DNA from: Burkholderiaceae bacterium | GTDB lineage: Bacteria > Pseudomonadota > Gammaproteobacteria > Burkholderiales > Burkholderiaceae_D | Length of the DNA: 64,000 nucleotides | Assembly (NCBI GenBank): GCA_039936235.1 | Contig: JBDTIS010000141.1 | Coordinates: 1,395 to 65,394 of the forward strand | Reading direction: 5' to 3' | Shown: positions 1-54,249 of the stretch, piece by piece | How the letters are laid out: each line of letters begins with the position of its first letter | How positions within the stretch are numbered: the stretch's first letter is position 1 | Position numbers and translations under genes: made by a program | The notes under the pieces: generated by a model | The model's database searches: none | What the model saw: only the letters and a program-made list of their open reading frames with translations | Told to the model about the DNA's origin: nothing

Positions 1-30
1 GGACTGTGGCGCTCCGCGCCGGCGTGACGC

Positions 31-678
31 TCAGGACGTCAGTTGCCGGATGAACGCCGGCGCGACGTCGCGGTCGATCGCGCCGCCGATCAGCGCGGCG
101 ATCTCGACGTCGCTCCGGCCCACTTTCCTGAGCTGATCGATCTCGTCGCCGAGCAGCGCGATGAACGCCTGCGTCGACAAGGCTTCGGAACCGATCCCCA
201 TCGCGTTGCGCAGCGCGTCGCGCGCACGCGCCAGTTCCTCGGACGAGAAGGTCTGCGCTTCGGCCTCGGCCACGCGTCGTTCGCGCGTCGCCTTCGGTTG
301 CGCGAACAGTCGCGCGATCTCGTCGACCAGCACGTCCGTGTCGGTGGCCTTCGTCAGGAACAGGTCGTAGTCGTCGAAGCGTTCGCGGACCCAGTGTTCG
401 TCGAGTCCGGTGTGGATACCGATCAGAACGTCCGCGGTCCTTTCGTTGTCTCGCAGTACGCGCGCAACCTCGATGCCGCTCATCTCCGGCATCGAGATAT
501 CCATCAGCACCATGTCGAACGGCTTCGCCGCCGCGAGGTCCACGGCTTCGCGGCCGTGCTTGGCCGTGACGACGACGTGGCCCTCGTGTTCCAGCATCAG
601 CTTGAGCACTTCGAGGATCGCCCAGTCGTCTTCGACGATCAGAATGCGACGGCGGGGATCGCGTTGCTTGAAGACCAA
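31..678 (-). CDS. Response regulator: receiver domain plus ~90-aa unassigned C-terminal region
   Basis: The 215-aa ORF starts at TTG 678, the only in-frame start upstream of the REC core. Receiver motifs are RILIVEDD and DMVLMDISMPEMSG. The C-terminal tail has no His and no domain I recognise. It lies 20 nt downstream of the REC-kinase gene on the same strand. Confidence 0.85.
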   Translation of the reverse strand: MVFKQRDPRRRILIVEDDWAILEVLKLMLEHEGHVVVTAKHGREAVDLAAAKPFDMVLMDISMPEMSGIEVARVLRDNERTADVLIGIHTGLDEHWVRERFDDYDLFLTKATDTDVLVDEIARLFAQPKATRERRVAEAEAQTFSSEELARARDALRNAMGIGSEALSTQAFIALLGDEIDQLRKVGRSDVEIAALIGGAIDRDVAPAFIRQLTS

Positions 679-698
679 GGGGGCGCGGGCCTGCGAAG

Positions 699-1841
699 TC
701 AGACGTGAACGCTGGCTGCGGCGACGGCACTCGCAGCGCGCGGCAGCGTGACACGGAACGTGGTCTTCCGATCCGCGCCGCCTGAGAGGACCTCGACCCG
801 CCCGCCGTGCGCGCGCGCGATCTGGTCGACGATGTAAAGACCGAGCCCGAGACCGTCGCCGCGCGTGCGATGCTGGTCACGGCTGCGGAAGGGGTCGAAC
901 ACGTGCGGCAACACGTCGTCCGGGATGCAACCCGCGTTGCTGACGGCGAACGCGACCTCCGCATCGTCAGTCCCGTCGAGTTCGCATTCGATCTCGCAGT
1001 CGGCGCCACCGTGTTGCAGCGCGTTGCCGATCAGGTTCGACGCGATCTGGGCCAGTCGACCCGCGTCCCACTCGCCTCCGAGATTGCCATTGGTCCGCAA
1101 CGCGATCCGCCGCTCGGGCATCGAAGCACGCTGTTCGTCGACGGCATGTGCGATCAGTGCGCCGAGATCGACCGGCTGATGCCGGATCGGAATCCCTCCT
1201 GCGAGTCGCACGCGTGCCAGGTCGAGCATGTCGGAGATCATGTGGCTCATCAGCTTGGCGCTGGCGAGCGTGCGCGCCGCCGATCGGCGCGTCGTCTCGT
1301 CGGCAGCCTTCTTCTCGAGCAGGATGGAGCCCATCACGATCGCGCTGAGCGGTCCGCGCAGGTCGTGGCCGAGCATCGCGGTGAACATCTCCTGCAGCCG
1401 CAGCGTCTCGGTCTTCTCACGCAGCTCGCGCGCGAGCTGCAGCCGTTGCTGTGCGAGCTCGATGAACACGTCGACCTTGCTCTTGAGGATATGCGGATCG
1501 ATCGGTTTGAACAGGAAGTCGACCGCGCCGGTCTCGTAGCCCTTGAACACGCGTCGCTCGTCGCTCGCACCGGCCGTGACGAAGATGATCGGCACGGCGC
1601 GCGTACGCTCGCTGCCGCGCATCAACTCGGCGAGCTCGAAGCCGTCTAGCTCGGGCATCTGTACGTCGACGAGCGCGAGCGAGACGTGATGGATCAGCAG
1701 CAGTTCGAGCGCCTCGGCGCCCGAGCGGGCCTCGAGCAATTCGATGTCGTCGCGACGCAGCAGCGCCGACAGCGCGAGTAGGTTCTCGGGCAGATCGTCG
1801 ACCAGTAACAGCTTCACCGGGATCGCCGGATCGGGTTTCAT
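699..1841 (-). CDS. Response-regulator/histidine-kinase hybrid (REC-HisKA-HATPase)
   Basis: N-terminal receiver motifs are KLLLVDDLPENL, DVQMPELDG and FLFKP. These are followed by an H-box (MLGHDLRGPLSAI), an N-box (NLIGNALQHG) and a G-box (GDGLGLGLYIVDQIARAHGG). ATG 1841 overlaps the cheB stop as ATGA. Confidence 0.9.
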   Translation of the reverse strand: MKPDPAIPVKLLLVDDLPENLLALSALLRRDDIELLEARSGAEALELLLIHHVSLALVDVQMPELDGFELAELMRGSERTRAVPIIFVTAGASDERRVFKGYETGAVDFLFKPIDPHILKSKVDVFIELAQQRLQLARELREKTETLRLQEMFTAMLGHDLRGPLSAIVMGSILLEKKAADETTRRSAARTLASAKLMSHMISDMLDLARVRLAGGIPIRHQPVDLGALIAHAVDEQRASMPERRIALRTNGNLGGEWDAGRLAQIASNLIGNALQHGGADCEIECELDGTDDAEVAFAVSNAGCIPDDVLPHVFDPFRSRDQHRTRGDGLGLGLYIVDQIARAHGGRVEVLSGGADRKTTFRVTLPRAASAVAAASVHV

Positions 1842-2488: not shown

Positions 2489-3338
2489 CGGCCTTCTTCC
2501 GGTATATCCGGTCGCCGGCCACGAACGGATCGAACGCGTGGGCCTGGCTCGAGAATCGCAGCGACTCCTTCGAGCCGATGCCGAGGAAACCCTTGCGGCA
2601 CAAGGCTTCGTGGAACAGGCCGAGCGCGCGGTCCTGCAACTCGCGCGTGAAGTAGATCAGCACGTTGCGACACGACACCAGCTGCATCTCCGCGAACACG
2701 CTGTCGGTCGCGAGGCTGTGATCGGAGAACACGATCTGCTCGCGCAGCGTCTTGTCGAACACCGCACGGTCGTAGGCGGCCGTGTAGTAGTCCGACAGCG
2801 ACGTGTGCGCGCCGGACCTTCGATGATTCTCGGTGAAGCCGGCGATCCGGTCGATCGCGTAGATGCCGGCCTCGGCCTGCGCGAGGGCACGCGGATTGAT
2901 GTCGGTCGCATAGATCAGCGTGCGTTCGAGCAGCCCTTCCTCGCGCAACAGGATGGCGATCGAATAGGCCTCCTCGCCGGTGCTGCAGCCGGCGATCCAG
3001 ATCTTCAGCGACGGATAGGTGCGCAGCAGAGGCACGACCTTCTCGCGCAGCGCGAGGAAGTAGGCAGGGTCGCGGAACATCTCGCTGACCTGGACCGTCA
3101 GGTAGTCGAGCAGCGGCGGAAAGAAGGCCGGGTCGTGCAGCACGCGATCCTGCAGCTGCGACAACGTCTTGCAGCCGAAGCGTGTCATCGCGGTCGTCAG
3201 CCGACGCTTCAACGACGCGCCGGCGTAGTCGCGGAAGTCGTAGTGGTACTTCAGGAAGATCGCGTCGACGAGCAGCTGCAATTCGATGTCGAAGTCCCTG
3301 CTGGCCTCGGCGACGGTTGCCGGCGGGGTGGTGATCAC
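2481..3338 (-). CDS. cheR: CheR-type protein-glutamate O-methyltransferase
   Basis: Track ORF 2481..4442 is over-extended. CheR-like sequence begins near DFDIELQLLVDAIFLKYHYDFRDYA. The SAM-binding region is KIWIAGCSTGEEAYSIAILL, followed by CRNVLIYF. GTG 3338 forms a GTGA overlap with the stop of the upstream hybrid kinase. Confidence 0.9.
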   Translation of the reverse strand: MITTPPATVAEASRDFDIELQLLVDAIFLKYHYDFRDYAGASLKRRLTTAMTRFGCKTLSQLQDRVLHDPAFFPPLLDYLTVQVSEMFRDPAYFLALREKVVPLLRTYPSLKIWIAGCSTGEEAYSIAILLREEGLLERTLIYATDINPRALAQAEAGIYAIDRIAGFTENHRRSGAHTSLSDYYTAAYDRAVFDKTLREQIVFSDHSLATDSVFAEMQLVSCRNVLIYFTRELQDRALGLFHEALCRKGFLGIGSKESLRFSSQAHAFDPFVAGDRIYRKKADA

Positions 3339-6300
3339 TTCGGCATCCAGACGCGGACCAGCGACAGGAGCTTCTCGACGTCGAGCGGCTTCGCGACATA
3401 GTCGTTGGCGCCCGCCGCGAGGCATTTCTCCTGGTCGTCGCGCATCGCCTTGGCGGTCAGTGCGATGATCGGCAGCTTCTTCCAGCGCGGATCCTTGCGG
3501 ATCTGGCGCATCGCCGTGTACCCGTCCATCTCGGGCATCATGATGTCCATCAGGACCAGATCGATCGCGGCAGCCGGGTCGCCGACGGTCTTCGCGAGCG
3601 CCTCCAGCGCTTCGCGGCCGTTGCGGGCGATCTCGATCTTCAGGCCCTTCGGTTCGAGCACGCTCGTCAGCGCGAACACGTTGCGCACATCGTCCTCGAC
3701 GACCAGCACGCGCCGACCCTCGAAGGTGGACTCGCGGCTGCGTGCCTCGCGCAGCATCCGTTGCCGTTCCGGCGGCAGGTCGGCCTCGACCTGATGCAGG
3801 AACAGCGTGACCTCGTCGAGCAGGCGCTCCGGGGACCGCGCGTCCTTGATGATGATCGATCGCGAGTAGCGGCTCAGCCGCTGCTCTTCGCTTCGCGTGA
3901 GCAGTCGGCCCGTGTAGACGATCACCGGCGGGAACGCCACGTCGTCGTGCGCGGCCATCTTCTCGAGCAGGTCGTAGCCGGACAGGTCCGGCAGGTTCAG
4001 ATCCATCACCATGCAGTCGAAGGTCGCGCCCTGCAGATGCGCTAGCGCGTCCGACGCGCGCGACGCACCGACGATCTGCACGCCGTCGCTCTCGAGCAGC
4101 TGGCGGATGCTTTCGAGCTGGCGCGCGTCGTCCTCGACGACCAGCACGCGGCGCAGGTGCGGCGTGAAACGGGCGCGCAGGCCTTCGAGCGCTTCGACGA
4201 GCTGTTCGCGCTTGACCGGCTTCAGGTCGTAGCCGACGGCGCCGAGTTCGCGCGCCTCCTGGCGATAATCGGCGACCGACGCGACGTGAACCGGGATGTG
4301 CCGCGTATCCGGATCGCGCTTGAGCTGGTCGAGCACGCCGAGCCCGGAGTGGTCGGGCAGGTTCATGTCGAGCAGGATCGCGTTCGGCCGATAGGTCTTC
4401 GCGGCGGACAGACCGTCGCCGGCGCTGTGTGCGATGACGCACTGGAAGCCCATCTCGTGCGCCAGGTCCTGCAGGATCGCGGCGAAGCGCTTGTCGTCCT
4501 CGATCACGAGGATCAGCCGCGCATGCGGTGCGAGTCGATCGCGGTCGTCGCCGGTGACCGGCGGCAGCCCTGGCGCCTCGTTCGCCCGTGCCGGGACGAT
4601 GATCGTCGGCGGCGCTGACGGCGGGGGCGGCGCCACGAACGGCGTCGGGGGCAGTCGAGCCGGCTTCTCGCCGTCGGCGACGAACACGATCGGCAGCGTC
4701 AGCGTGAACACGCTGCCCTGTCCGGTCGTGCTCTGCACGACGACGTCGCCGCCGAGCAGCCGCGCCAGATCGCGAGAGATCGACAGGCCGAGCCCGGTCC
4801 CGCCGAAGCGACGATGGGTGCTGCCGTCGGCCTGACGGAAGGCCTCGAAGATCACTTCCTGTTCATGCGGCGCGATGCCGATGCCGCTGTCGCTGACAGC
4901 GATCGCGATCTTCCCGTCTTCGGGCGTGAAGACGCGCAGTCCGACTTCACCGCGGGCCGTGAACTTGAACGCGTTGGACAGCAGGTTGCGGACGACCTGG
5001 CCGATCCGCTGCGGATCGGTCTCGATGCGCAGCGGCGTGCCGGGCTCGACGGTCGCCGTGAACGCGAGACCCTTGTCGCGCGCGATCGGCTCGAACGTCA
5101 TCACGAGCGCTTCGACGATGCGATTGACCGGCACCGACTCGACGTCGATGTCGACCTTGCCGGCCTCGATCTTCGACAGGTCGAGGATGTCGTTGATCAG
5201 CGTCAGCAGATCGTTGCCCGCCGACAGGATGGTGTCGGCGAACTTGACCTGTTCGTCGGTGAGATTGCCGTGCTTGTTGTCGGCCAGCAGCTTCGACAGG
5301 ATCAGCGTCGAGTTCAGCGGCGTACGCAGCTCGTGGCTCATGTTGGCGAGGAATTCGCTCTTGTACTGGTTCGAACGCTCCAGTTCCTCGGCCTTGTCGA
5401 CCAGCACGTTCTGCGAACGGACCAGCGTCGCCTTCTGGTCCTCGAGCAACTGTGCCTGCTCTTCGAGTTGGGAATTGGTCTGCTCGAGTTCGGATTGCTG
5501 GCCCTCGAGCTGTGCCTGAGAGACCTTCAGCGCCTGGCCCTGTTCCTCGAGCTCCTCGTTGCTCACGCGCAACTCTTCCTGCTGCGCCTGCAACTCCTCG
5601 GCCTGCTGCTGTGTCTCGGCGAGCAGCGCGTCCACCCGGTCGCGTTCGCGCGAGCTCCGGATCGCGACCGCAACGACTTCGGAAATGCGTGCCAGCAGTT
5701 CCCGATCTTCGGCACCGACTTCGCGCAGGAAGGCGAACTCCATGATCGCCTGGAGCTGTCCGTCCACCGTCGCCGGTGCGACCAGCAGTTCGCGCGGCTG
5801 CCCGCGACCGAGCGACGAACGGATCTCCAGGTAATCGGCGGGCACCTTGCGGACGTGGATCACGTCGTTGTCCTTCGCGGCCTGGCCGACCAGCCCTTCA
5901 CCGATCGCCACCGATCGCGATTCGTCGGCGGACCCGTCGGCATAACCGGCGACGCGATGCAGGCGGCCGTCGCCTTCGGGCGCGTAGACCGTCGCATGCG
6001 GCACGTCGAGATAGCGGGCGAGGAAGGCCAGCGCTTTCGCGCACATCGCGTCCATTCGCCTCTCGCCGAGCAACTGTTCGGCGAGCCCCGAGACGCCGGC
6101 ACGCAACCAGCTCTCGATCTCGCGTTCGCGGTGGCCGCGCGCCAGAGCCCAGGCGGCGGTCGCGATCAACAACAGCAGAACCGTCGCTCCGATCATCGTG
6201 AAGCGGAAAGCGGCCCGCACTGCCGCATCGCTTTCGGCCTGCCGACTTGCCAGCACGCCGCGTTCGTCGGCCTGCATCTCGCCGATCAGCGCGCGGATGC

Positions 6301-6793
6301 TGTCCATCGTGACCTTGCCAAGATCGGTGCGAACGAGCGCCACCGCGCCGTCGATATCGCCAGAACGACGCAGCGTCACCGTATCGCGCAGCTCGGTCAG
6401 TTTGCTCTCGACCAGCGGCTCGAGCGCGGCGATCCGGGCCGCCTGCCGCGGGTTGTCGGCGGTGACGCTCCGCAACGAAGCGAGTTCGCCGGGCGCCGTC
6501 GTCTGGGCCGTCGTATAGCGTGCGAGATAGTTCTCGGTGCCGGTCAGCAGATAGCCGCGCTGTCCGGATTCGGCGTCCTTCATGTGATCGAGCAGCGTCT
6601 GCACGCGGGCGAGCACCTCCAGCGTGTGCGCCACGCTCTCCTCCGTGGCCTGGCTGCCGAGCATCGAGCGGTAGGCCAGCGCCGCGGAGACGGTCACGAC
6701 GATCGCCGCGATGACGAGGCCCCCGACAGTGCGCGCAGGAAGGTGAAAGCGCTTGCGGGCCACGGCGAAGGGAGCGGCTTGGGAATCGGGCAT
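3335..6793 (-). CDS. Hybrid sensor histidine kinase: TM-CHASE3-like-TM, GAF-like, long coiled coil, HisKA, HATPase, three receiver domains
   Basis: I place the start at ATG 6793; the track ORF runs on to 6925 through an Arg/Pro-rich stretch. Two TM segments bracket a ~170-aa region with CHASE3-like sequence (ESGQRGYLLTG). Downstream are a GAF-like block, a Q/E-rich coil, an H-box (MSHELRTPLNS) and HATPase motifs (NLLSNAFKFT, GGTGLGLSISRDLARLLGG). Three REC domains follow (LILVIEDD, VLVVEDDARQ, VLVVEDDVRN). Confidence 0.9.
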   Translation of the reverse strand: MPDSQAAPFAVARKRFHLPARTVGGLVIAAIVVTVSAALAYRSMLGSQATEESVAHTLEVLARVQTLLDHMKDAESGQRGYLLTGTENYLARYTTAQTTAPGELASLRSVTADNPRQAARIAALEPLVESKLTELRDTVTLRRSGDIDGAVALVRTDLGKVTMDSIRALIGEMQADERGVLASRQAESDAAVRAAFRFTMIGATVLLLLIATAAWALARGHREREIESWLRAGVSGLAEQLLGERRMDAMCAKALAFLARYLDVPHATVYAPEGDGRLHRVAGYADGSADESRSVAIGEGLVGQAAKDNDVIHVRKVPADYLEIRSSLGRGQPRELLVAPATVDGQLQAIMEFAFLREVGAEDRELLARISEVVAVAIRSSRERDRVDALLAETQQQAEELQAQQEELRVSNEELEEQGQALKVSQAQLEGQQSELEQTNSQLEEQAQLLEDQKATLVRSQNVLVDKAEELERSNQYKSEFLANMSHELRTPLNSTLILSKLLADNKHGNLTDEQVKFADTILSAGNDLLTLINDILDLSKIEAGKVDIDVESVPVNRIVEALVMTFEPIARDKGLAFTATVEPGTPLRIETDPQRIGQVVRNLLSNAFKFTARGEVGLRVFTPEDGKIAIAVSDSGIGIAPHEQEVIFEAFRQADGSTHRRFGGTGLGLSISRDLARLLGGDVVVQSTTGQGSVFTLTLPIVFVADGEKPARLPPTPFVAPPPPSAPPTIIVPARANEAPGLPPVTGDDRDRLAPHARLILVIEDDKRFAAILQDLAHEMGFQCVIAHSAGDGLSAAKTYRPNAILLDMNLPDHSGLGVLDQLKRDPDTRHIPVHVASVADYRQEARELGAVGYDLKPVKREQLVEALEGLRARFTPHLRRVLVVEDDARQLESIRQLLESDGVQIVGASRASDALAHLQGATFDCMVMDLNLPDLSGYDLLEKMAAHDDVAFPPVIVYTGRLLTRSEEQRLSRYSRSIIIKDARSPERLLDEVTLFLHQVEADLPPERQRMLREARSRESTFEGRRVLVVEDDVRNVFALTSVLEPKGLKIEIARNGREALEALAKTVGDPAAAIDLVLMDIMMPEMDGYTAMRQIRKDPRWKKLPIIALTAKAMRDDQEKCLAAGANDYVAKPLDVEKLLSLVRVWMPK

Positions 6794-7018
6794 GGGATGG
6801 TTCGATCGAGCGGACGCGGCCGCGCCTCGGCCGGGGCGCCTGAGGGGCCGTGCATGATAAACGGCGCGCGGCGGCGGGTCGTGGGAGCGCGCCTGATCCG
6901 GAAGCGTCCGACGCAGGGTTCGCAAAAATACGACGGGCGGTCAGACGCGTCGGCCCCGATCGCCCCAGGCCGGGCCTTGCGCACACCGATCAATGCGCTC
7001 GGCGCTTCGGAGCGGGCC

Positions 7019-12698: not shown

Positions 12699-13331
12699 TC
12701 AGACCGCCGAAAAAGGCGTCCTGCGCCTCGTGCGCAGCCTCGTTGCGAGGATCGCGAGGCCGAGACCGAACAATGGCAGCACACCGGGCTCAGGCACGGC
12801 GGTGACTCGGACGTTGTCTATATAGCCGCCGCGACTGTCGCTGATGCCGAACGCGGTGAACGACACGCGCGACAGCGACGAGGTCGCCACGGCGGTCATG
12901 TCGTAGCCGGACCAGACGGTGTCGGCGAGATCGATGCCGCTCAGAGCCATCATCGCGTACGGCGAGTCGTCCCACAGGAACGCGAGGCCGTTCGAGGCCG
13001 CACTCACCCCTGGCCGCGGCGAATACTGGAACTGGATCCTGTAGGTGGCGCCGATCGCCGTCGCGAAGTCCTGATACATGCTGCTGTTGCCATCGGTGTC
13101 GAGTTCGACGTACTGGTTGCCTTCGTACGGCGTACCGGCGACGTGGTTCTGGACTTCGATGGTGGGCGCGCCGATCCAGCCCGGGATGGCCGTCAGCGTC
13201 GCGAAGCTTCCGTCGGCGATGGCGGGCTGCTCGAAGCCGCCGTCGATCAGCAGGTTCGCGTGCGCCGGAATGGCCGCGGCCGCGGCTAGAGCCAGGGTCA
13301 GAGCGACGAAGGCCGTCTTGTAGATACGCAT
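12699..13331 (-). CDS. Secreted PEP-CTERM sorting-domain protein with beta-sandwich-like N-domain
   Basis: I use ATG 13331 (MRIYKTAFVALTLALAAAAAIPAHA, a signal peptide). The C-terminus is VPEPGVLPLFGLGLAILATRLRTRRR: a PEP motif, a TM helix and a basic cluster. Confidence 0.75.
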   Translation of the reverse strand: MRIYKTAFVALTLALAAAAAIPAHANLLIDGGFEQPAIADGSFATLTAIPGWIGAPTIEVQNHVAGTPYEGNQYVELDTDGNSSMYQDFATAIGATYRIQFQYSPRPGVSAASNGLAFLWDDSPYAMMALSGIDLADTVWSGYDMTAVATSSLSRVSFTAFGISDSRGGYIDNVRVTAVPEPGVLPLFGLGLAILATRLRTRRRTPFSAV

Positions 13332-13554
13332 GCGTGCCACCAGGGTTGGTCGTTGATGGTCCACGACTCCCGCATATTCCGTGCCGGGCAAGTTCGCGGC
13401 GTGCGTTTACCCATGACGCGAGCCGTGCAACGACTCACGATCGCGGGACGGCTGTTGTGACGGGAATCGGTCGACAGGACCGCACCGCGTCATCGACAGG
13501 TCGCTTTCGGCCGCGCCGCTATCATGAGCATACCCAGGTCATTCCCTCGATCCC

Positions 13555-14361
13555 ATGCCCAATCCCCTGAAACGCTATCGCATCGTCGACGACCGTAAAC
13601 TGGATCTCGCGACGTTCGATCCCACCGTTCCGGCGATCGATGCGAAGGACGTCGGCGACGCGATGAAGGGCTTGCAGGTCGACATCGCGGCGCTGCAGAA
13701 TAAGTTGTTCGCCGAGCGGACCCGCAGCCTGCTGCTGATCCTGCAGGGGATGGACACGTCCGGCAAGGACGGCGCGACGATCGCGACCTTCGACAAGACC
13801 CACCCGCAGGGCGTGCTGGTGGCGCCGTTCAAGGCGCCGTCGAGCGACGAGGCGGCCCACGACTTCCTGTGGCGCGTCCACGCGCACACACCGGCCAGGG
13901 GAATGATCGCGGTATTCAACCGCAGTCATTACGAGGCCGTGATCGCCGAGCGCGTGCTCGGCCTGGCCGATCGGCAGGAATGTCGCCGTCGCTACCGGCA
14001 GATCGCCGACTTCGAACGGATGCTGGCCGAGCACGGGACGCTGGTCGTCAAGTGCTTCCTGCACATCTCGATCGGCGAACAGCAGATGCGGTTGCAGTCG
14101 CGGATCGACGATTCGACGAAGCACTGGAAATTCAATCCCGCCGATCTCGTCGAGCGGGCGCGCTGGAGCGCCAACATGGACGCCTACACGGATGCGATCC
14201 GGCGGACGTCGACGCGCATCGCTCCGTGGTGGATCGTGCCGTCCGACGCGAAGCCGCATCGCAACCTGATGGTAGCCACGCTGGTCCGCGATGCGCTGAT
14301 GAGGCTGAACCCGCAATATCCGACGTTGGACCCGCAGTACGCGTCGCTGCAGGTCACCTGA
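13555..14361 (+). CDS. Polyphosphate kinase 2 (PPK2) family protein
   Basis: The sequence LLLILQGMDTSGKDGA is the Walker A-like motif. Other family features are DFLWRVH, IAVFNRSHYE and WWIVPSD. Confidence 0.9.
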   Translation: MPNPLKRYRIVDDRKLDLATFDPTVPAIDAKDVGDAMKGLQVDIAALQNKLFAERTRSLLLILQGMDTSGKDGATIATFDKTHPQGVLVAPFKAPSSDEAAHDFLWRVHAHTPARGMIAVFNRSHYEAVIAERVLGLADRQECRRRYRQIADFERMLAEHGTLVVKCFLHISIGEQQMRLQSRIDDSTKHWKFNPADLVERARWSANMDAYTDAIRRTSTRIAPWWIVPSDAKPHRNLMVATLVRDALMRLNPQYPTLDPQYASLQVT

Positions 14362-14504: not shown

Positions 14505-17500
14505 GTGGACAAGGACTCGAAAGGCTCCAGCGGATCGATCCCGACGACCGGAATGATATGGGTCGCGCTGTTCGCGGCCGGTGCCTTCTTCGCGCACGAG
14601 GTGCCGTGGCAGGGATCGCGTCCGAACGATGGCGAGCCGAAGCCGTATCCGTACGTCGCACGCCAGGACGTCGACGCGCGCCTGTGGCAGGACCCGCTCG
14701 GCGCGATCACGCGTGGACGCGACGATGTCCGCAAACAGTATCCGGGCATTTCGGGACCCGCGCCGTCGGACGGGTCTGTTTCTCCGCGCACGGAGAAGGA
14801 GGAACATGGTCCCGAGGCGTTGGTGGCCGACATCGGGGATCGAAGCTGCCAGTCCGGCGTCGCGCCGCTGATCGTCCCGATCATGATCCCCGGCGGCTCC
14901 TATCCGGGGCTCGTCGAGTCAAGGCGTCGGGACCGATACGCAGCGCTCGCGGCGTTCAACGAACTGGGGTACGCACCCGACGATCCCGAGCATCTCGGTT
15001 ACCTGATGCCGGGCCCACGTACGGCGACCGGCGGAATGACGATGCCCGAGTTCATCGCGTACGAATGGCTGAGCCCGGCGCGCTCCGGCGTCGAGGAGGC
15101 CGGCAGCCCACAGGCTCTCGTGCTGTGGCTCGACGAGGATGTCTTCGGAAAGGAACCGCTCGCCCACTTCGATGCATTGACGAAGATGCTCGGCACCGCG
15201 GCGTGCGCCGCCGGTCCCGGTCGCGCGGCGCACGCCGTCACTCCTCGCTTCGTGGTCATCGGACCTTCGTACACGTCGACGTTGCAGGAGATGCTGAAGG
15301 CCGCGGTCCTGGAACGGCGGAGCGGAGCGACGCCGCCGAAGCGGCCGCGCTTCTACGCTTACGGTGCGACGTCCGACAACGCGAGCATTCTCCAGAGCCA
15401 GGGTTTCGACACGGCGAAGACGACGCTGCCCATTCTTTTCGGGAGCGACGGCCTGGAAGTCTTTCGCACCATCGGTCAGGACCGCGACCTGACCGTGAGT
15501 CTGCACGGCGAACTGATCAAACGCGGCGTCGATCCGGCGCGCCACGCGAACTGCTACAACGAGCCCGCGAAGGAAGCCGGCGTCCAGCACGTCATCCTGA
15601 TCGCCGAATGGGACACGTTCTACGGTCGCGCGCTGCCGGACTTGATGATGGAGCAGTTCAGGGATGGAGGCTGTTCTGCCAAGGCCGTGCGTCGCTACGT
15701 GCATCGTTACAGTTACATGCGCGGCCTCGACGGACAACTACCGACGGTCGGCAAGAGCGCTGCTCCGGCAACGACGTCGTCGACCGCGGCTGCAGCGCCG
15801 GGCGACGCCGGACGGCCCACCGACAAGAGCAACCGCGAACGGCAGATCGAGCGGCCGGAAGGGCAAAGCCAGCTCGATTATCTGCGCCGCCTTTCGGTGG
15901 ACCTGGCCACGCTCGACCAAACGCTGCAGCGCGAAGGCCATGGCTCGATCGTGACGATCGGCGTTCTCGGCACCGACGTGTTCGACAAGATGCTCATCCT
16001 GCAGGCGCTGCGACCCCAGTTCCAGAACGCGATCTTCTTCACGACCGATCTCGATGCGGAGATGCTGCATCCGAAGGAACGTGACTGGGCGAAGAACCTC
16101 GTCGTCGCGTCGTCGTTCGGCCTGCAACTGCATCCGTCCGTGCAGCGCGACACCCTGCCGTTTCGCGACAGCTATCAGACGTCGGTCTACCTGTCGACGC
16201 AGATCGCGCTCTACAACGCACTCGATCTATGCAACGCGACGCTGGACGGCCGTGGTCCCTGCATCGGCCAGAACACGCTCGACCAGTGGCTCGCGCATCC
16301 GCGCGTATTCGAAGTGGGACGTGACCTCGCATTCGACTTCGGCGCGACCCGCGAAGTGCTTTGCGACGACGTCGACGACTGGACGACCTGCGACAGCATC
16401 CATCCTCCCGGTACACGTCGCTTCCGGTCCCTGCGCGGCAACGCCTTTCGCAACGGCATCCTGCTCGTGATCGCGGGCCTCGTGATCCTCGGCATCACCA
16501 CCGGCGTCGGCCGTCGCGTCAAGGCCTGGAAGCTCGGCGTCCGGCTGCGTCGGGCCATCCTTCGAGTGCGGTTGGGCAAGGGCCTCGGCCGTATCGCGAG
16601 CGGTCGTTGGCTGGCCAACGCAGGGCCCGCCAGCTGGATCATGCGAGCCCGCTTCAGCCAGCCGCTGATCGACCTGCGCTTTGGTCGATGGCTGCAGCAC
16701 ACGCATCCTTCATGGTGGGTGAGCGGCCAGCAGAAGCCGTCGTCGCGGCTGCGCAATTGCGTAGCCGACTGGCTCATCCGACTAACGCCGTGGTCGCTGG
16801 TGATGTTCGCCATCGGCGTCGTCACGATCGTTCTGCTGACGTTTTCAGGCCAGTGGTTGTGGGAGCGCTTCGCGGGTTACCTGACACAGGGTGACGACGG
16901 CGAGCCGATCTCGTTCATCGACGGGATCAGCGTCTGGCCGACCGAACTTCTTCGCCTCGTGTCGTTCGTGCTGTCCGTGGCTTTCGGGATCTGGGCCTGG
17001 GTCCTGCTGAACCGCAACCTGATCGAAATCGCGCGCGAGCTGAGGTTCCGGCCCACGCAGAAGCGGATGATGGCCGACGTCCGCTCCGACGTGCGCAACT
17101 GGACGTGGTGCGACCGGATCGTCGGCATCCTTTCGTTCCGACTCGGGGAGTACCAGGGCAAGTCGATGACACGGAAGATCGGACTGACGCCGCGCGCGCA
17201 ATGGTTCTGGAAGAAGTACCTCTACAAGGGCATGGGCCTGTCGCGGTCGATCCGGGTCGTGGGCGCCGTGGTGCTGTACGCGATCGTCGCGTCCGCCGTG
17301 GTCGCCTACTTCGGTGTGCCGGGGACTCCCTACCGCGGCGAGGTGTCCAAGGCTTGGAACGCGGCGGTCCTCCTGCTCAGCGTCGGTTCGATGTTGTTCA
17401 TCATTTTCTTCGTGGTCGATGCGACGGTGTTTTCTCACCAGATCATCAAGGCGCTGAAAAAAGAGATCGACAAGCGGTACGCCGATGGTGGCGGAACGAT

Positions 17501-18002
17501 CTGGGCGAGCAGTACCGTCGCCCATTACCAGAAGAAGTTCGAGATCAAGGATCCGTACCAACTGGACGCGTGGGTGCTGATGGATTTCATCTCGCTGCGC
17601 ACGAAGGTCGTCGCCAAGCTGATCTACCTTCCGTTCATCGCGATCTCGCTGATGGTCCTGTCACGCAGCCAGCTGTTCGACAACTGGACGATGCCGGTCG
17701 GACTCGTCCTCGTGTTCGCGAGCAGCGTCGCGATCATCATGGGATGCGCCATCCTGCTACGCGAGTCGGCCGAGTCGGTCCGTGACGACGTGCTCCGGCG
17801 ACTGACCGAAGAACTGGTCCGTGTGAAAGGGATCGGCGGCGCGTCGGGACAGATCGAGACGTTGATCGCGGAAATCAGGTCGTTGCGCAAAGGCGCCTTC
17901 GCGCCCTACACGCAGCAGCCGCTATTTCGCGCGCTGCTGTTGCCGCTGAGCACGTTCGGTGGCTCCGCACTGCTCGACTACATGACCATGTACAGCTTCT
18001 GA
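14505..18002 (+). CDS. Large (1165-aa) multi-pass membrane protein of unknown function
   Basis: This is a single long ORF with G/C-rich third positions. The start is GTG 14505 (GAGGG just upstream) or ATG 14553. It has one N-terminal TM, a ~620-aa hydrophilic region with paired Cys, then 7 hydrophobic segments and a ~80-aa C-terminal tail. I recognise no catalytic or family motif. Confidence 0.8.
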
Positions 18003-18097
18003 CCGCGGGCGGGTTGAACTCACCGGTCGATTGGTCTATGGTCGGACGCCCCACAGCCCCACGGACGGGCCAACCGTCGCCGCGCAGGAGACACGAC

Positions 18098-21000
18098 ATG
18101 ACCGACCTATCCGTCCCGAAGACGCTCGCCGATCGCGACGCCGCCTGGCGTCCCGTCAACAAGGTGCGCTTCGTCACGGCCGCCTCGCTGTTCGACGGCC
18201 ACGATGCATCGATCAACATCATGCGTCGCATCCTGCAGTCCAGCGGCTGCGAAGTGATCCACCTCGGCCACAACCGCTCGGTCGACGAGGTCGTCACCTG
18301 CGCGCTGCAGGAAGACGTGCAGGGCATCGCGATGTCGAGCTATCAAGGCGGGCACGTCGAGTACTTCAAGTACATGATCGACCTGCTGAAGGAGCGCGGC
18401 GGCGCGCACATCAAGGTATTCGCGGGTGGGGGCGGCGTGATCGTCGGGTCGGAGATCCGCGAACTGCAGGCCTACGGGGTCGAGCGGATCTACAGCCCGG
18501 AGGACGGGCAGCGGATGGGGCTCGCCGGGATGATCCGCGACATGATCGAGCGGTGCGACGTGGATCTGTCGGTGTTCGCGCCGACGACGCTGGATGGTAT
18601 TCGCGGCGGGGATCGACGTCAGTTGGCGCAGCTGATCACGGCGCTGGAGAACCGTCGCGGCTCGAGCCCGGATCAGCGCTTCACGGCGCTTCGTGCCGAG
18701 TTGTATCGAGGCGCCGACGCCACCACCATCCCTTCCCTCGGCATCACCGGCACCGGCGGCGCCGGCAAGTCGTCGCTGACAGACGAACTGATCCGCCGCA
18801 TCCGCCTCGACCAGGACGACGCGCTCGACATCGCGATCATCTCGATCGACCCGTCGCGTCGCAAGTCCGGCGGTGCGCTGCTCGGCGACCGCATCCGGAT
18901 GAACGCGATCGGGCCGTGGAGACGCGCGGACGGTACGGCCAGGACCTCGGTCTTCATGCGCTCGCTCGCGACGCGCGAGGCTGGCCAGGAGATCTCCGAC
19001 GCGCTGCCCGACGTGATTGCGGCCTGCAAGGTCGCAGGCTTCGACCTGATCGTCGTCGAGACCTCCGGCATCGGCCAGGGCGACGCGGCGATCGTGCCGC
19101 TGGTCGACGTGAGCCTGTACGTGATGACCCCGGAGTTCGGCGCCGCCAGCCAGCTCGAGAAGATCGACATGCTCGACTTCGCCGATTTCGTGGCGATCAA
19201 CAAGTTCGACCGCAAGGGCGCCGCCGACGCGCTGCGCGACGTCGCCAAGCAGGTTCAGCGCAACAAGGAAATGTGGACGACGAAGCCCGAAGAGATGCCG
19301 GTCTACGGCACGCAGGCTTCGAAGTTCAACGACGACGGCGTGACGGCTTTGTACCAGGGACTGCTGCCGAAACTCGCCGGGTTCGGATTGAAGACGGTCG
19401 ACGGCAAGCTGCCGAAGGTCGGCACGCACCAGTCGACGGCGACGAACGTGATCGTGCCGCCTGCGCGCGCGCGCTATCTCGCGGAGATCGCGGATACGGT
19501 GCGCGGATATCTCGCGCGCTCGATCGACCAGAGCCGTGTGGCACGGGAAGTGCAGCAGTTGCGGGCGGCGGCGATGATGTTGGCGGAGTGCGCCACCGCA
19601 CACAGCACTGACATCGGCGCGTTGACGTCCCTGGCCGACGACCGCCATGCCTTCCTGGGCCCCACCGAGAAGAAGCTCCTGGCGATGTGGCCCGCGATGC
19701 AGAAGGCCTACGCCGGCGACGAGTACGTCGTGAAGATCCGCGACAAGGAACTGCGCATCGCGCTCACCACGAAGTCCCTCTCCGGCACCACGATCCGCAA
19801 GGTCGCGCTGCCGAAGTACGAGGATCACGGCGAAACGCTGAAGTGGCTGCTGCGCGAGAACGTGCCGGGCTCCTTCCCGTTCACCGCCGGCACGTTCGCG
19901 TTCAAGCGCGAAGGCGAGGATCCGACGCGGATGTTCGCCGGCGAAGGCGATCCGTTCCGCACCAACAAGCGCTTTCGCATCCTGTCCGAAGGGATGCCTG
20001 CGAAGCGGCTGTCGACCGCGTTCGACAGCGTCACGCTGTACGGCCACGAGCCGGACCTGCGACCCGACATCTACGGCAAGGTCGGCAACTCCGGCGTGTC
20101 GATCGCGACCCTCGACGACATGAAGGTGCTGTATTCGGGCTTCGACCTGACGAGCCCGGTGACGTCGGTGTCGATGACGATCAACGGCCCCGCGCCGTCG
20201 ATCCTCGCGATGTTCATGAACACCGCGATCGATCAGAACCTCGACAAGTTCAGGGCCGAGAATGCACGGGAACCCACGGACGACGAAACCCGGAAGATCC
20301 GCGCATGGGTTCTGGAGAACGTCCGCGGCACCGTACAGGCCGACATCCTGAAGGAAGACCAGGGACAGAACACCTGCATCTTCTCGACCGAGTTCAGCCT
20401 CAAGGTGATGGGCGACATCGCGCAGTATTTCGTGCAGCACCGCGTCCGCAACTTCTATTCAGTATCGATCAGCGGTTATCACATCGCCGAGGCTGGCGCG
20501 AACCCGATCAGCCAGCTCGCGTTCACGCTGTCGAACGGCTTCACGTTCGTCGAAGCCTCTCTGGCGCGCGGGATGCACATCGACGACTTCGCGCAGAACC
20601 TGTCGTTCTTCTTCAGCAACGGCATGGACCCCGAGTACACCGTGATGGGCCGCGTCGCGCGCCGCATCTGGGCCATCGCGATGCGCGACAAGTACGGCGC
20701 GAACGATCGCAGCCAGAAGCTGAAGTACCACATCCAGACCTCGGGTCGATCGCTGCACGCGCAGGAGATCCAGTTCAACGACATCCGCACGACGCTGCAG
20801 GCGCTGATCGCCGTCTACGACAATTGCAACAGCCTGCACACGAACGCATTCGACGAGGCGATCACGACGCCGACCGAAGACAGCGTGCGTCGCGCGATGG
20901 CGATCCAGCTGATCATCAATCGCGAATGGGGCCTGGCGAAAAACGAGAACCCGAACCAGGGCGCGTTCATCATCGATGAACTGACCGACCTGGTCGAAGA

Positions 21001-51120: not shown

Positions 51121-51435
51121 TCAGCCGACCACGACTTCGCTCATCTGGATCACCGGTGCCAGGTCGGTGTAGTTCTTGATGTCGGCCATGATCTCCTGGG
51201 CGTGCGGACCGAAGCCCGCGCCGAATGCATCGGCCGACTCGCTGTAGATGTGGCACATCCCGACATAGGTCGCCGGCGTATCCGGCGCGCCGCCGCCCAG
51301 GCCCCTGTCGATCGTGTACTTCACGCAACTGTCCCCCATCCGCGCCTTCACGAGCGGCATGTGCTTGTCGCGGTAGTAGTCGTGGTCGAATCGGGCACCA
51401 GGGGTGTTCGGATACATCACGCTGACCTTGATCAT
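51121..51435 (-). CDS. EthD-family protein
   Basis: I use ATG 51435 with GAGGAGAA upstream. The protein is 104 aa and begins MIKVSVMYPNTPGARFDHDYYRDKHMPLV. Confidence 0.8.
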   Translation of the reverse strand: MIKVSVMYPNTPGARFDHDYYRDKHMPLVKARMGDSCVKYTIDRGLGGGAPDTPATYVGMCHIYSESADAFGAGFGPHAQEIMADIKNYTDLAPVIQMSEVVVG

Positions 51436-51982
51436 TGCTTCTCCTCGTCGTTGTCCTTCGTACCGGCGACGGATCGTGCACCGGCGTTCCGCATCTGACA
51501 AGGCGTTGTACGGATCAGCCCTTCGATTTCCTCTTCGTCGTGACGGCGGCCCGGGCTGCTTCGGCGCATCGTCGTCGGACGGCAGATGGGCCAGCTGGTC
51601 CGCGTCGAGCTTGCCGATGAACTTCCAGCCGTCCGGCAGCTCGATGAACGCGAAGCGGTCGGCGGATCGACGAATACGTCGTAATCGCTGGCGACGGGCG
51701 CCTGCTCGCGCGGCGGAACCGATCAACATCGCAGGTATGAAGACGAGGCACGGGGCGCCCATGGTCGCGGTGAGCGCCGGGCTGCTCGAAGTTGCCGCGC
51801 TGACGACTCTTTACTCGGGATTAACCCGGCTGGTCGATCGCGGCCGGGCAAGGCACACTCGCAGGCCGTCATGCATCGGTCCCGCGCCATATGCGCACGA
51901 ATCTTGGAGGGTTCGGTGGGAGACCGTTCGCGAATGCACCGACGTGCACGGGGACTCGAACACAACACGACAAGGAAAATAT

Positions 51983-54246: not shown

Positions 54247-54249
54247 CCG

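Follow-up and report, generated by a model that had tools for sequence, protein, structure and literature searches.

A protein of 1165 aa encoded in a 64,000-nucleotide window (the whole stretch of Burkholderiaceae DNA that was analysed) carries a Venus-flytrap domain that is anchored by two membrane helices, TM1 and TM2, and is followed by a conserved helical module (Table 1). As modelled by AlphaFold2 (AF2), the residues between the two anchors that are listed in Table 1 are of the type I periplasmic-binding-protein fold, and the domain architecture and topology as a whole are very probably as given here. The combination suggests a new bacterial ligand-gated sensor, for which a self-contained flytrap-gated channel is the best reading, one that we hold tentatively.

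Table 1. Features of the gene and its product, in positions of the window
Feature	Position	Residues	Strand	Basis
Complete gene	14505..18002		+	1165 aa plus stop
TM1, N-terminal anchor, in-to-out	14547..14591	15-29	+	hydropathy (~12-30) and helix 15-29 in AF2 model
11-aa membrane-proximal motif	14664..14696	54-64	+	family alignments
Type I periplasmic-binding-protein / Venus-flytrap-like domain	14802..16349	~100-615	+	AF2 model and Foldseek
Low-complexity Ala/Thr/Ser/Pro-rich insertion in flytrap domain	15717..15860	~405-452	+	pLDDT <50 at 417-452
Linker from flytrap domain to membrane, with Cys pair C-x8-C-xx-IHP	16350..16436	616-644	+	Cys co-occurrence in 113 homologues
TM2, out-to-in	16437..16499	645-665	+	hydropathy, AF2 model, homologue alignment
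Arg/Trp-rich cytoplasmic loop	16500..16787	666-761	+	hydropathy, AF2 model, homologue alignment
Helices S1-S6 of membrane module	16788..17834	S1 762-793, S2 811-845, S3 911-936, S4 946-994, S5 1017-1052, S6 1065-1110	+	two independent AF2 runs, conservation, coevolution
Predicted split last helix S7a/S7b	17844..17990	S7a 1114-1125, S7b 1139-1162	+	two AF2 runs, homologue alignment, coevolution (S6ext-S7a hairpin)

Gene, neighbours and family

The reading frame is uninterrupted and codon-biased, as the original prediction had it, with GC at the three codon positions of 0.63, 0.47 and 0.83, similar to that in other genes of the window (66.6% GC). It starts with GTG at 14505 in NCBI's call, against an alternative ATG at 14553, leaving an uncertainty of at most 16 codons. 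The product corresponds to GenBank MEO8937411.1 / MEO9062783.1 ('hypothetical protein ABI277_00490') of a Burkholderiaceae MAG. As had been described, PPK2 (13555-14361) lies 143 nt upstream and icmF, whose product has B12-binding, MeaB and mutase domains, lies 95 nt downstream. The accompanying view that neither has an evident functional link to the gene is supported by related loci, with PPK2 upstream in 2 of 83 and IcmF downstream in 1 of 83. Across the 83 loci, which span several phyla, no gene neighbour was conserved with the family gene, the sole neighbour cluster shared across clades being generic ABC ATPase paralogues in varying positions, and a search for a riboswitch accompanying the family gene found none.

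Pfam, NCBIfam and PADLOC gave no family match to the protein at E<=1 and PDB sequences gave no match, in agreement with the claim that it is unassignable by sequence; the family has no name and no Pfam family, and no literature on it was found. An initial homologue search returned at least 314 matches. The family comprises at least 3,556 clusters at 50% identity (E<=1e-3), with members that are nearly all ~1,000-1,250 aa long and are spread over Beta-, Alpha- and Gammaproteobacteria, Verrucomicrobiota, Methylomirabilota, Nitrospira and others, including homologues in the culturable Ralstonia, Roseateles, Azotobacter, Nitrosomonas and Methylomicrobium. Thirty-four alignment columns are invariant across phyla, and 67 of the 80 loci examined have an intact ORF that is 900 aa or longer. 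The family is real and constrained.

Periplasmic domain and its membrane tethers

Hydropathy reproduced the layout that had been proposed for the protein, namely TM1, a hydrophilic block of 620 aa and seven further hydrophobic segments within residues 651-1085. TM1 is probably an uncleaved signal-anchor, because Phe occupies position -3 of the lone Ala-X-Ala-like site. In the membrane-proximal motif, R59, W61, D63 and P64 are invariant family-wide. Loops on the cytoplasmic side are rich in Lys and Arg (20 K+R against 2 D+E in residues 670-763, for example), and the same charge asymmetry was seen across 113 homologues, so that the predicted agreement with the positive-inside rule holds both here and in the wider alignment. 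The loop of residues 666-761 is disordered at 694-757 and represents a lineage-specific expansion (family median, 21 aa). Both Cys pairs that had been pointed out are present, C576/C586 being lineage-specific and C620/C629 a family feature (both residues present in 83 of 113 homologues, both absent in 25), and a disulfide between C620 and C629 is likely. Given that 109 of 113 homologues have an even number of Cys residues in the large domain and that loop charges follow the positive-inside rule, this domain is placed by its sequence in the periplasm, in line with the oxidising compartment originally envisaged.

The full-length AF2 model reached a pLDDT of 82.8 and a pTM of 0.81, and by DSSP its residues 122-611 contain ~14 strands in alternation with helices, most of this stretch having a pLDDT >90. 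The best Foldseek match of the domain was the ANP receptor (1dp4, E 4.1e-5), leading matches ranged from 4e-5 to 1e-3, and the probability was 1.00 for the top nine, the leading ones all being type I binding proteins or flytrap domains. With target-normalised TM-scores of 0.61 (1qnl, AmiC), 0.59 (4ru1), 0.58 (3hcw), 0.56 (1qo0) and 0.54 (4zjp), the domain can be superposed on solved type I members at TM >=0.5. AlphaFold2 and Foldseek thus confirmed a guess from sequence stretches that the domain is an alpha/beta fold of the periplasmic-binding-protein kind. A confident match to a characterised family, which had been named as the finding that would remove interest in the gene, was obtained at the fold level for the periplasmic domain alone and nowhere else in the protein. 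At the sequence level, ANF_receptor, Peripla_BP_1-6 and LppC gave no match to the domain (Pfam/NCBIfam, E<=1), while a genuine Peripla_BP_6 protein within the window, serving as positive control, scored E 2.4e-72; hhalign of the domain against that same protein gave a probability of 0.35%. A faint echo of the type I 'strand-D-x-x-YG' motif is found in HIALISEWDTxYGR.

Conserved motifs of the domain include GGxY..E.RRR.RY, VLWLD, GP, SEWDTxYGR, YxRGLDG, EGQSQxDYLRRL, GxLGxDxxDK, FFTTDLD and PFRDxYQTS, and its invariant acidic, basic and aromatic residues cluster right after beta-strands, at strand C-termini, where an inter-lobe cleft would be expected. The Ala/Thr/Ser/Pro-rich insertion is predicted to be disordered. 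Such conservation could also be that of a membrane-anchored periplasmic enzyme, with a catalytic alpha/beta domain and a membrane module that anchors it or supplies a lipid-linked substrate: at strand ends (in EWDTxYGR, GxDxxDK and TTDLD), ~25 positions are invariably Asp, Glu, Arg, Trp or Gly, an unusually high, enzyme-like degree of conservation that exceeds what most binding proteins keep at 30% identity. However, the confident structural matches are all binding or receptor domains, no catalytic family was matched, and conservation of the module equals that of the soluble domain, which one would not expect if it were a mere anchor. We consider an enzyme improbable.

Membrane module and comparison with insect chemoreceptors

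After TM2, six clear helices (S1 to S6) are followed by a marginally hydrophobic C-terminal S7b. Because the flytrap domain is periplasmic and TM2 follows it, S1 is expected to be N-in; an outer C-terminus would require S7b to cross the membrane. S4, S5 and S6 measure 49, 36 and 46 aa in two independent AF2 models, according to which ~15-25 residues of each would protrude into the cytoplasm. Periplasmic loops are short and conserved (EL1, 17 aa, GEPxxxxxGxSxWPTE; EL2, 9 aa, PxRG; EL3, 12 aa, SRSxxFDNW), and with 9-17 aa the outer loops are shorter than the inner ones with 22-65 aa (IL1, 65 aa; IL2, 22 aa; S6ext-S7a-linker, ~50 aa). Coevolution recovers the packing of S2-S4, S4-S6, S4-S5 and S2-S5, and its strongest pair, 1029-1092, represents a contact between the S5 and S6 extensions.

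A split of helix S7 was seen at the level of predicted secondary structure. In the models, S7a is cytoplasmic and forms a hairpin with the S6 extension, and six coevolving pairs with constant i+j define this S6ext-S7a hairpin. The S7a-S7b linker, GAFAPxxQQP, contains an invariant G1130 and a P1139 kept in 108 of 113 homologues. S7b is helical in both AF2 models and, with a mean Kyte-Doolittle value of 1.2, is missed at a threshold of 1.5; it contains Pro, Gly-Gly, Ser/Thr and Asp/Glu residues, conserved among them P1147 and G1152-G1153, with R/K at 1142 and E/D at 1158. This helix may be a ninth membrane segment and is a putative pore or gating helix, its basic residue 1142 and acidic residue 1158 being compatible with an in-to-out helix; coevolution gave no placement for S7b. 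If S7b does not span the membrane, the topology is unlike that of the insect chemoreceptor channels (7TMICs). Mean column conservation was highest in S5 (0.59), EL3 (0.59), S7b (0.58) and S6ext-S7a (0.47-0.59), and low in S1 (0.25), IL1 (0.31) and S3 (0.34).

The original prediction had parsed this region as a 7-TM module plus a C-terminal tail of ~80 aa. Seven hydrophobic segments and a C-terminal stretch of that size are both present, but the parsing is probably wrong: TM2 seems to tether the flytrap domain to a seven-helix unit that comes after it, and the split last helix of this unit lies in the supposed tail, which is not a plain one: it includes a helix-linker-helix and is the best-conserved part of the module.

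In a Foldseek search with the full-length model, Gr43a was matched at E 1.6e-2 and probability 0.98; with the module alone, insect Gr/Or chains filled the top seven and 17 of the 26 leading places, with probabilities up to 0.94. These chains were the only coherent membrane-protein matches in both searches, and the far commoner GPCR and transporter chains were not among such matches. TM-scores of the module against solved Gr/Or structures were 0.28-0.37 (rmsd 10-18 A; E 0.02-0.9), below the criterion of >0.5 for established 7TMICs. In the same Foldseek list, the de novo designed helical-repeat protein 9mg8 (PMC12685108) appears at probability 0.38-0.51, so that scores in that range can reflect generic long-helix similarity. 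Alignment of the module with the Orco C-terminal alignment by hhalign gave a probability of 0.06%, and 7tm_6, 7tm_7 and DUF3537 yielded no meaningful match, the one of 25 members that reached 7tm_7 at E 0.21 being noise.

Prokaryotic 7TMICs have been reported by Himmel, Moi and Benton 2023 (bioRxiv 10.1101/2023.08.30.555482), whose criteria we applied to the module. It agrees with them on five points, including short outer loops, a long TM4-TM6 running into a cytoplasmic anchor, a TM7 that is split in the predicted secondary structure (the criterion having 7a intracellular and 7b in the membrane) and a conservation that is strongest in the anchor, in TM5-TM6 and in TM7b. Given that the published screen retained proteins with exactly seven predicted TM helices (bioRxiv 10.1101/2023.08.30.555482), the architecture of the 1165-aa protein would have been dropped by it. 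From the models, a 7TMIC-like fold of the module is conceivable, with a chance somewhat below even, and it is rather doubtful that the family is a prokaryotic 7TMIC branch that gained a dedicated extracellular flytrap domain for ligand binding.

A relation to class C GPCRs would read the same helices in another way, as a flytrap, a Cys linker and seven TMs from TM2 to S6 with N-out/C-in topology. Full-length mGlu2, mGlu3 and the sweet receptor are among the Foldseek matches, the stretch that joins the flytrap domain to the membrane contains a Cys pair, and the topology would be N-out, C-in if S7b were not a membrane helix. These matches are nevertheless explained by the flytrap alone, as the alignments cover ~570 columns, or 1045 at an rmsd of 30 A. 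Although thousands exist in the PDB, no GPCR transmembrane domain ranks high (the sole listed GPCR has a probability of 0.02), 7tm_3 was without a Pfam match, and neither long cytoplasmic helix extensions nor a first inner loop of 65 aa is GPCR-like. We give this relation hardly any weight.

Proposed function and relation to known systems

No enzymatic cytoplasmic output domain was found in the protein by Pfam; combined with the lack of a conserved neighbour in the 83 loci and of a riboswitch, this indicates that the membrane module would be its own effector. An earlier suggestion of a receptor-channel or sensor-effector fits these findings, with some support from an insect-receptor-like module that has neither a cytoplasmic output domain nor a conserved partner gene, and the function is still a proposal. 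The cytoplasmic helices could instead serve a non-conducting transmembrane receptor, in which ligand reshapes the helical bundle so that a cytoplasmic partner from an unlinked gene is recruited or released, in the manner of chemoreceptors and anti-sigma factors. From S4 to S7a, the helix extensions make up a conserved bundle of ~150 aa in the cytoplasm, with invariant charges such as R1093 and E1090, and flytrap domains often drive signalling receptors (the ANP receptor, class C GPCRs and BvgS). However, a recognisable output or adaptor domain is absent, and no partner gene is conserved in the 83 loci of several phyla, whereas in bacteria a receptor and its signalling partner are usually encoded by linked genes. 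A receptor of this kind seems quite unlikely.

The flytrap could also capture a solute and hand it over to the module acting as a new secondary permease, a tethered-binding-protein transporter that resembles ABC importers with fused substrate-binding domains, minus the ATPase. Type I binding-protein folds classically partner transporters, the best structural matches include sugar and amide binding proteins, and the binding domain is fused to a polytopic module whose tightly conserved periplasmic loops could dock it; moreover, the gene stands alone, so that its function must be self-contained. By contrast, the module resembles no permease family in sequence (Pfam) or structure (Foldseek), with BPD_transp, DctM/Q and TctA (ABC, TRAP and TTT permeases) all lacking a Pfam match in the protein. 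It also falls short of known secondary carriers in size and shows no inverted-repeat look like theirs, a large part of its mass would, as modelled, be a cytoplasmic helical bundle, and neither an ATPase nor another energising partner is conserved nearby. We regard a transporter as unlikely.

In the flytrap-gated channel, the gene product would act as a chemosensor in the periplasm and would have its own membrane module as effector, with the build of the insect receptor channels for taste and smell. A small, probably invariant ligand would enter the cleft lined by family-invariant charged and aromatic residues, and closure of the cleft would be relayed via the Cys-clamped linker, TM2 and EL1-EL3 to the module. 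The module would oligomerise, as a tetramer by analogy, with S7b lining the pore through its Pro, a Gly-Gly hinge, a basic residue at the inner end and an acidic residue at the outer end, and ligand binding would gate an ion flux, probably of cations. Channel function as such is a possibility whose chance we put somewhat below even, at or just under that of the 7TMIC-like fold.

The gene, of ~1,100 aa, is found in thousands of bacterial genomes, and its carriers include nitrifiers, methanotrophs, polyphosphate accumulators, abundant soil Verrucomicrobiota and the plant pathogen Ralstonia. If the module is a true 7TMIC, the superfamily of insect taste and smell receptors would gain a sensor-fused architecture that is new to it, and for the first time a separate sensor domain would control the gating of a 7TMIC. 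Evolution would then have joined a Venus flytrap to a membrane effector on three or more occasions. Class C GPCRs and glutamate-receptor channels, which follow the logic of 'clamshell plus membrane effector', would have a counterpart in a single bacterial gene, and there would be an expressible bacterial system in which culturable hosts make gating tractable. If the 7TMIC link fails, a widespread one-gene device for periplasmic sensing or transport would still be at hand, and the very high conservation of cleft residues would point to one common, probably important, environmental ligand.

The periplasmic domain shares its two-lobed alpha/beta form and, judging from topology, its extracytoplasmic location with type I binding proteins and flytrap receptor domains (AmiC, LivJ-type proteins, sugar binders, the ANP receptor, mGluR and the amino-terminal domains of NMDA receptors). 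Unlike typical type I binding proteins, it is ~150 aa larger with a disordered insertion, is membrane-anchored at both ends and has many more invariant residues. A binding-protein fold tethered to a polytopic module is also found in ABC importers of the OpuA and GlnPQ type, but an ABC permease or ATPase signature appears neither in the protein nor in conserved neighbours. With class C GPCRs and ionotropic glutamate receptors, including GluR0, the protein has in common an outside clamshell coupled to a membrane effector in one polypeptide, whereas there is no relation between the membrane parts (neither sequence nor structure gave a match to a GPCR, to Lig_chan or to a K-channel pore). Ligand-binding domains of GluR0 and iGluRs are type II clamshells split by the pore, while the 1165-aa protein has a type I clamshell ahead of its module.

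To our knowledge, the ligand of known 7TMICs binds within their bundle of helices, and they lack a separate binding domain outside the cell. By contrast, the protein adds TM1 at the N-terminus, a flytrap domain of 520 aa and TM2, the last helix of its module is marginally hydrophobic, and its outer loops are highly conserved, unlike those of insect receptors. In common with Gr43a, BmGr9, Orco and MhOR5, the module would, according to the models, be N-in with short outer and long inner loops, with helices 4-6 extended into the cytoplasm and helix 7 split, and its strongest conservation likewise falls on the C-terminal anchor and pore region.

The gene, its flanks and its family

The ORF at 14505-18002 (+) starts with GTG and runs single and uninterrupted for 1165 aa, with a codon-position GC of 0.63/0.47/0.83 that is usual for genes of this 66.6% GC window. 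In its Kyte-Doolittle profile TM1 lies at residues ~12-30, a hydrophilic block of 620 aa comes next and seven hydrophobic segments fall within residues 651-1085; K/R-rich loops alternate with K/R-poor ones (20 K+R and 2 D+E in residues 670-763). The original prediction had described such a frame, first helix, hydrophilic block and seven segments, as well as two Cys pairs, both of which were found in the protein, and PPK2 and icmF as neighbours at 143 and 95 nt, the latter gap holding provided that IcmF starts at ATG 18098. It had also recognized no family, and Pfam, NCBIfam and PADLOC searches of the whole protein gave no usable match, being empty at E<=1. Because the ORF, segments, Cys pairs, neighbours and family searches all agree, this description is confirmed. 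The longest icmF ORF begins at TTG 18014 (window 18014-18098); the shorter start at ATG 18098 is more likely, because a GGAGA ribosome-binding site lies ahead of it and it matches the 95-nt gap. Elsewhere in the window, 3335-6940 (-) encodes a hybrid sensor kinase of 1201 aa that matches CHASE3, GAF, HisKA and HATPase_c as well as, three times, a receiver domain. A 230-aa protein encoded at 12699-13391 (-), between an MFS transporter and PPK2, has at its C-terminus a PEP-CTERM sorting motif, whose E of 3.8e-4 narrowly misses the Pfam cut-off, and is missing in a syntenic relative (locus L001).

Features of the 1165-aa protein (residues) and its flanking genes (window nucleotides)
Feature	Position	Basis or remark
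PPK2 gene	13555-14361	flanks the ORF, gap 143 nt
IcmF, fused isobutyryl-CoA mutase (B12-binding + MeaB + mutase)		flanks the ORF, gap 95 nt if ATG 18098
TM2	645-665	AlphaFold2
S1	762-793	AlphaFold2, two models
S2	811-845	AlphaFold2, two models
S3	911-936	AlphaFold2, two models
S4	946-994	AlphaFold2, two models
S5	1017-1052	AlphaFold2, two models
S6	1065-1110	AlphaFold2, two models
S7a	1114-1125	AlphaFold2, two models
Linker GAFAPxxQQP	1126-1139	AlphaFold2, two models
S7b	1139-1162	AlphaFold2, two models

GenBank lists the identical protein as MEO8937411.1, a 'hypothetical protein' of a Burkholderiaceae MAG. A word-indexed search returned at least 314 relatives, nearly all 1,000-1,250 aa in length, with none named and none possessing a Pfam domain; the database names of family members are all 'hypothetical'. 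Neither the protein nor family profiles had a meaningful match among PDB sequences, and a literature search yielded no description of this architecture. When a profile of the membrane module was scored against 1.84 billion cluster representatives, 3,556 proteins reached E<=1e-3, of which 2,182 reached E<=1e-30. Matching proteins of 390-510 aa were considered as stand-alone modules, a sign of modularity, and rejected as such: their starts fall within the flytrap domain or on a conserved internal Met that immediately precedes TM2. As these shorter matches look like truncated gene calls, the family architecture is essentially uniform. Over 113 family sequences of ~30-55% identity 34 columns are invariant, and an ORF of >=900 aa is intact in 67/80 loci; the gene is real and strongly constrained.

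Species-representative genomes were scanned and yielded 76 loci, with Rivibacter subsaxonicus, Paucibacter, Roseateles violae, R. saccharophilus, Nitrosomonas nitrosa and Methylomicrobium lacus as cultured hosts and many MAG hosts (Methylocella, Xanthobacteraceae, Accumulibacter, Gallionellaceae, Chthoniobacterales/Udaeobacter, Methylomirabilota, Syntrophobacteraceae); a homologue in Azotobacter salinestris was identified by the protein search together with a look-up of its contig. The megaplasmid NZ_CP039340.1 of Ralstonia pseudosolanacearum UW386 encodes a 1039-aa homologue of 28% identity (WP_254706924.1; locus L084, 6001-9120), where the PLSDB table lists no feature, and UniProt A0A0S4TUK3, a 'conserved membrane protein of unknown function', is the homologue in another strain, placing a family member in a genetically tractable plant pathogen. 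P0224 (1461 aa) and P0099 (1505 aa) represent a divergent subfamily in which an extra ~350-400 aa are inserted into the periplasmic domain and the C-terminal motif is changed to GAFSHWTRHP. In Paucibacter sp. PLA-PC-4 (locus L083, 4255-6024) the gene is broken up, its two ORFs (250 and 324 aa) matching the C-terminal end only, and is probably a pseudogene remnant.

Six long contigs were inspected, and the neighbourhood was compared at 83 loci, 7 of them contig loci and 76 taken from the genome scan, with all ORFs >=90 aa clustered by all-against-all BLAST. No conserved neighbour emerged across these loci beyond within-clade synteny; the only cross-clade cluster consisted of generic ABC ATPases and was dismissed as a conserved partner. 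PPK2 lies upstream in 2/83 loci and IcmF downstream in 1/83, both cases being the closest betaproteobacterial relatives. An Rfam scan detected no riboswitch or other RNA element upstream of the gene or anywhere in the window, and terminator and sigma-70 promoter patterns were none above chance. With no conserved neighbour and no RNA element, the family gene is a stand-alone unit: sensor and effector must reside in one polypeptide, or the partner is unlinked. The latter possibility corresponds to a non-conducting receptor signalling through an unlinked partner, which we consider distinctly unlikely.

A predicted periplasmic flytrap domain

An AlphaFold2 model of the full-length protein built from a 61-sequence alignment reached pLDDT 82.8 and pTM 0.81, with 655 residues at pLDDT >=90, and strands and helices alternate over residues ~100-615. 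Type I periplasmic-binding-protein/Venus-flytrap domains ranked first when this model was searched against the PDB with Foldseek, the best being the ANP-receptor hormone-binding domain (E 4.1e-5), together with mGlu2, mGlu3, a Desulfohalobium 'extracellular ligand-binding receptor' and NMDA-receptor amino-terminal domains. Target-normalised TM-scores were 0.61 for AmiC, 0.54-0.59 for sugar-binding proteins and 0.58 for LacI-type repressors. The predicted fold assignment is sound, and the earlier guess of a periplasmic-binding-protein-like fold proved right at the fold level. The matches to mGlu receptors could suggest a class C GPCR-like protein; this is highly improbable, because the flytrap domain accounts for them and no GPCR transmembrane domain was matched.

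At the sequence level, by contrast, the domain is far off canonical type I binding proteins. It had no Pfam match, while a control Peripla_BP_6 protein of the same window scored E 2.4e-72, and hhalign of the domain versus that protein gave a probability of 0.35% with 28 columns aligned, covering a strand-DxxYG motif only. The control, a genuine LivJ-like protein at 51380-53335 (+), comes from an open frame of 651 aa in which the domain covers residues 258-615 only, so that either its true start is far downstream or it has a ~250-aa N-terminal extension; among the genes that follow are an ORF fusing BPD_transp_2 to an ABC ATPase (54247-56097) and a gene for an AMP-binding enzyme.

A periplasmic location of the flytrap domain is supported by the positive-inside charge pattern, by a Cys count that is even in 109/113 homologues and by the C620/C629 pair, of which both members are present in 83/113 and both absent in 25/113. 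Its invariant residues comprise E138, R140, R144, E187, W208, D326, E336, R340, D370, G407, D409, G410, Q456, D458, R462, G486, G489, D491, D494, K495, F512 and R554. Most lie just after beta-strands in the alignment and model, which for a flytrap fold would be the inter-lobe cleft. Because they are so uniformly conserved, they suggest one common ligand or, as a minority rival, a catalytic role; a membrane-anchored periplasmic enzyme of the latter kind is improbable. As a separate observation, the gene for homologue P0062 (locus L005, 8001-11333; metagenome contig ERZ25039482 contig_18690) lies 136 nt 3' of a urease operon that is complete (ureABC-EFG) and has the same orientation, a single case without conservation elsewhere. 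With AmiC, an amide receptor, as the best TM-score flytrap match, this is only a lead toward urea or amides as ligand.

The membrane module

The module was modelled twice independently, within the full-length protein and as residues 745-1165 alone (pLDDT 84.8), and the helices of both models are identical. Since the flytrap domain is predicted to be periplasmic and TM2 runs out-to-in, S1 would begin in the cytoplasm. The periplasmic loops EL1-EL3 measure a short 17, 9 and 12 aa and show strong conservation (GEPxxxxxGxSxWPTE, PxRG, SRSxxFDNW); those on the cytoplasmic side are long, and S4-S6 reach 15-25 residues into the cytoplasm. Column conservation peaks in S5, EL3, S6ext-S7a and S7b (0.47-0.59), and S1 scores least (0.25). 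TM2 and S1 are joined by a cytoplasmic loop (residues 666-761; window 16500-16787) that is Arg/Trp-rich, predicted disordered and 96 aa long for a family median of 21 aa, and that looks like a lineage-specific insertion.

When mean-field DCA was run over 278 module sequences (Neff 250), it independently gave an S6ext-S7a hairpin, visible as six pairs of constant i+j, parallel S2-S4 and S4-S6 pairs, antiparallel S4-S5 and S2-S5 pairs, and an S5ext-S6ext contact. For S7b the signal was too noisy for placement, with only a weak depletion of contacts to cytoplasmic segments (3 observed, 9.8 expected), as for S1 and unlike S7a. S7b contains P1139, P1147 and G1152-G1153, a basic residue at 1142 in 83/113 sequences and an acidic one at 1158 in 86/113, plus 20 with Gln; it is marginally hydrophobic (mean KD 1.2) and was missed at the 1.5 threshold. 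Homologues with extra C-terminal sequence were rejected as a clue to the compartment of the C-terminus, as they resemble frameshift read-through.

Possible mechanism and likeness to insect receptor channels

The flytrap domain is membrane-tethered at both ends and adjoins the three conserved periplasmic loops, while the cytoplasmic part of the module is a helical bundle only, without enzymatic output. Ligand binding might close the clamshell, and the linker with its Cys clamp, TM2 and EL1-EL3 could relay this closure to the module. As a self-contained output, ion flux would be the most economical, through an oligomeric pore with S7b as its lining; the Pro/Gly-Gly hinge of S7b and the acidic residue at its outer end would fit a cation pore that is gated. 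A transporter with a tethered binding protein is an unlikely alternative reading.

Insect gustatory (Gr) and odorant (Or, Orco) receptors are the founders of the 7TMIC superfamily. In the top 50 Foldseek matches of the full-length model, the membrane proteins were insect Gr/Or only: Gr43a (E 1.6e-2, probability 0.98), BmGr9, Gr64a, Orco/OR5, AaegOR10 and AgamOR28. With the module only, Gr/Or channels were the first 7 and 17 of the 26 best matches, with probability up to 0.94 and alignments covering essentially the whole target; GPCRs and transporters, far commoner in the PDB, were absent from these matches. The same module-only list contained 9mg8 (b-iTHR-110) at probability 0.38-0.51, a de novo designed helical-repeat protein (PMC12685108) that was for this reason rejected as a bacterial receptor and kept for calibration; given these scores, only a few top Gr/Or matches clearly exceed generic helix similarity.

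The module shares with 7TMICs the loop-length rule, a long 'anchor' made by TM4-6, a TM7 that is split in the models and the pattern of conservation, while helix count and C-out topology both depend on the marginally hydrophobic S7b. By contrast, TM-scores against Gr/Or were 0.28-0.37, where the superfamily criterion is >0.5, and hhalign of the module versus an Orco C-terminal alignment gave a probability of 0.06%, which is no sequence-profile link. That alignment was seeded with an Orco fragment matching a PDB Orco chain at 100%, the protein-database Orco sequences being exon-sized fragments. Pfam 7tm_6/7tm_7 were absent from the 1165-aa protein, and 25 module sequences scanned versus Pfam gave scattered noise. 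Because of these TM-scores, the profile result and the calibration caveat, we speak of likeness to 7TMICs, not membership: the models tentatively suggest a module that works like, or is built like, a 7TMIC, and a Venus-flytrap-gated bacterial 7TMIC proper is possible, if on the unlikely side.

Roseateles saccharophilus BE314 carries two full-length paralogues in tandem on the same strand (locus L070, 40-3495 and 3625-7122; 1151 and 1165 aa, 48% identical), and two MAGs also have two loci each (L060/L067 and L045/L082). The tandem pair raises the possibility of hetero-oligomers, by analogy with insect Or/Orco. Prokaryotic 7TMICs have been reported by Himmel, Moi and Benton (bioRxiv 10.1101/2023.08.30.555482), who retained a protein only if its predicted TM helices numbered exactly seven, so that a nine-helix fusion like the 1165-aa protein would have been dropped. 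Each of the two building blocks is a fold of a known kind, but their combination and the family are new.
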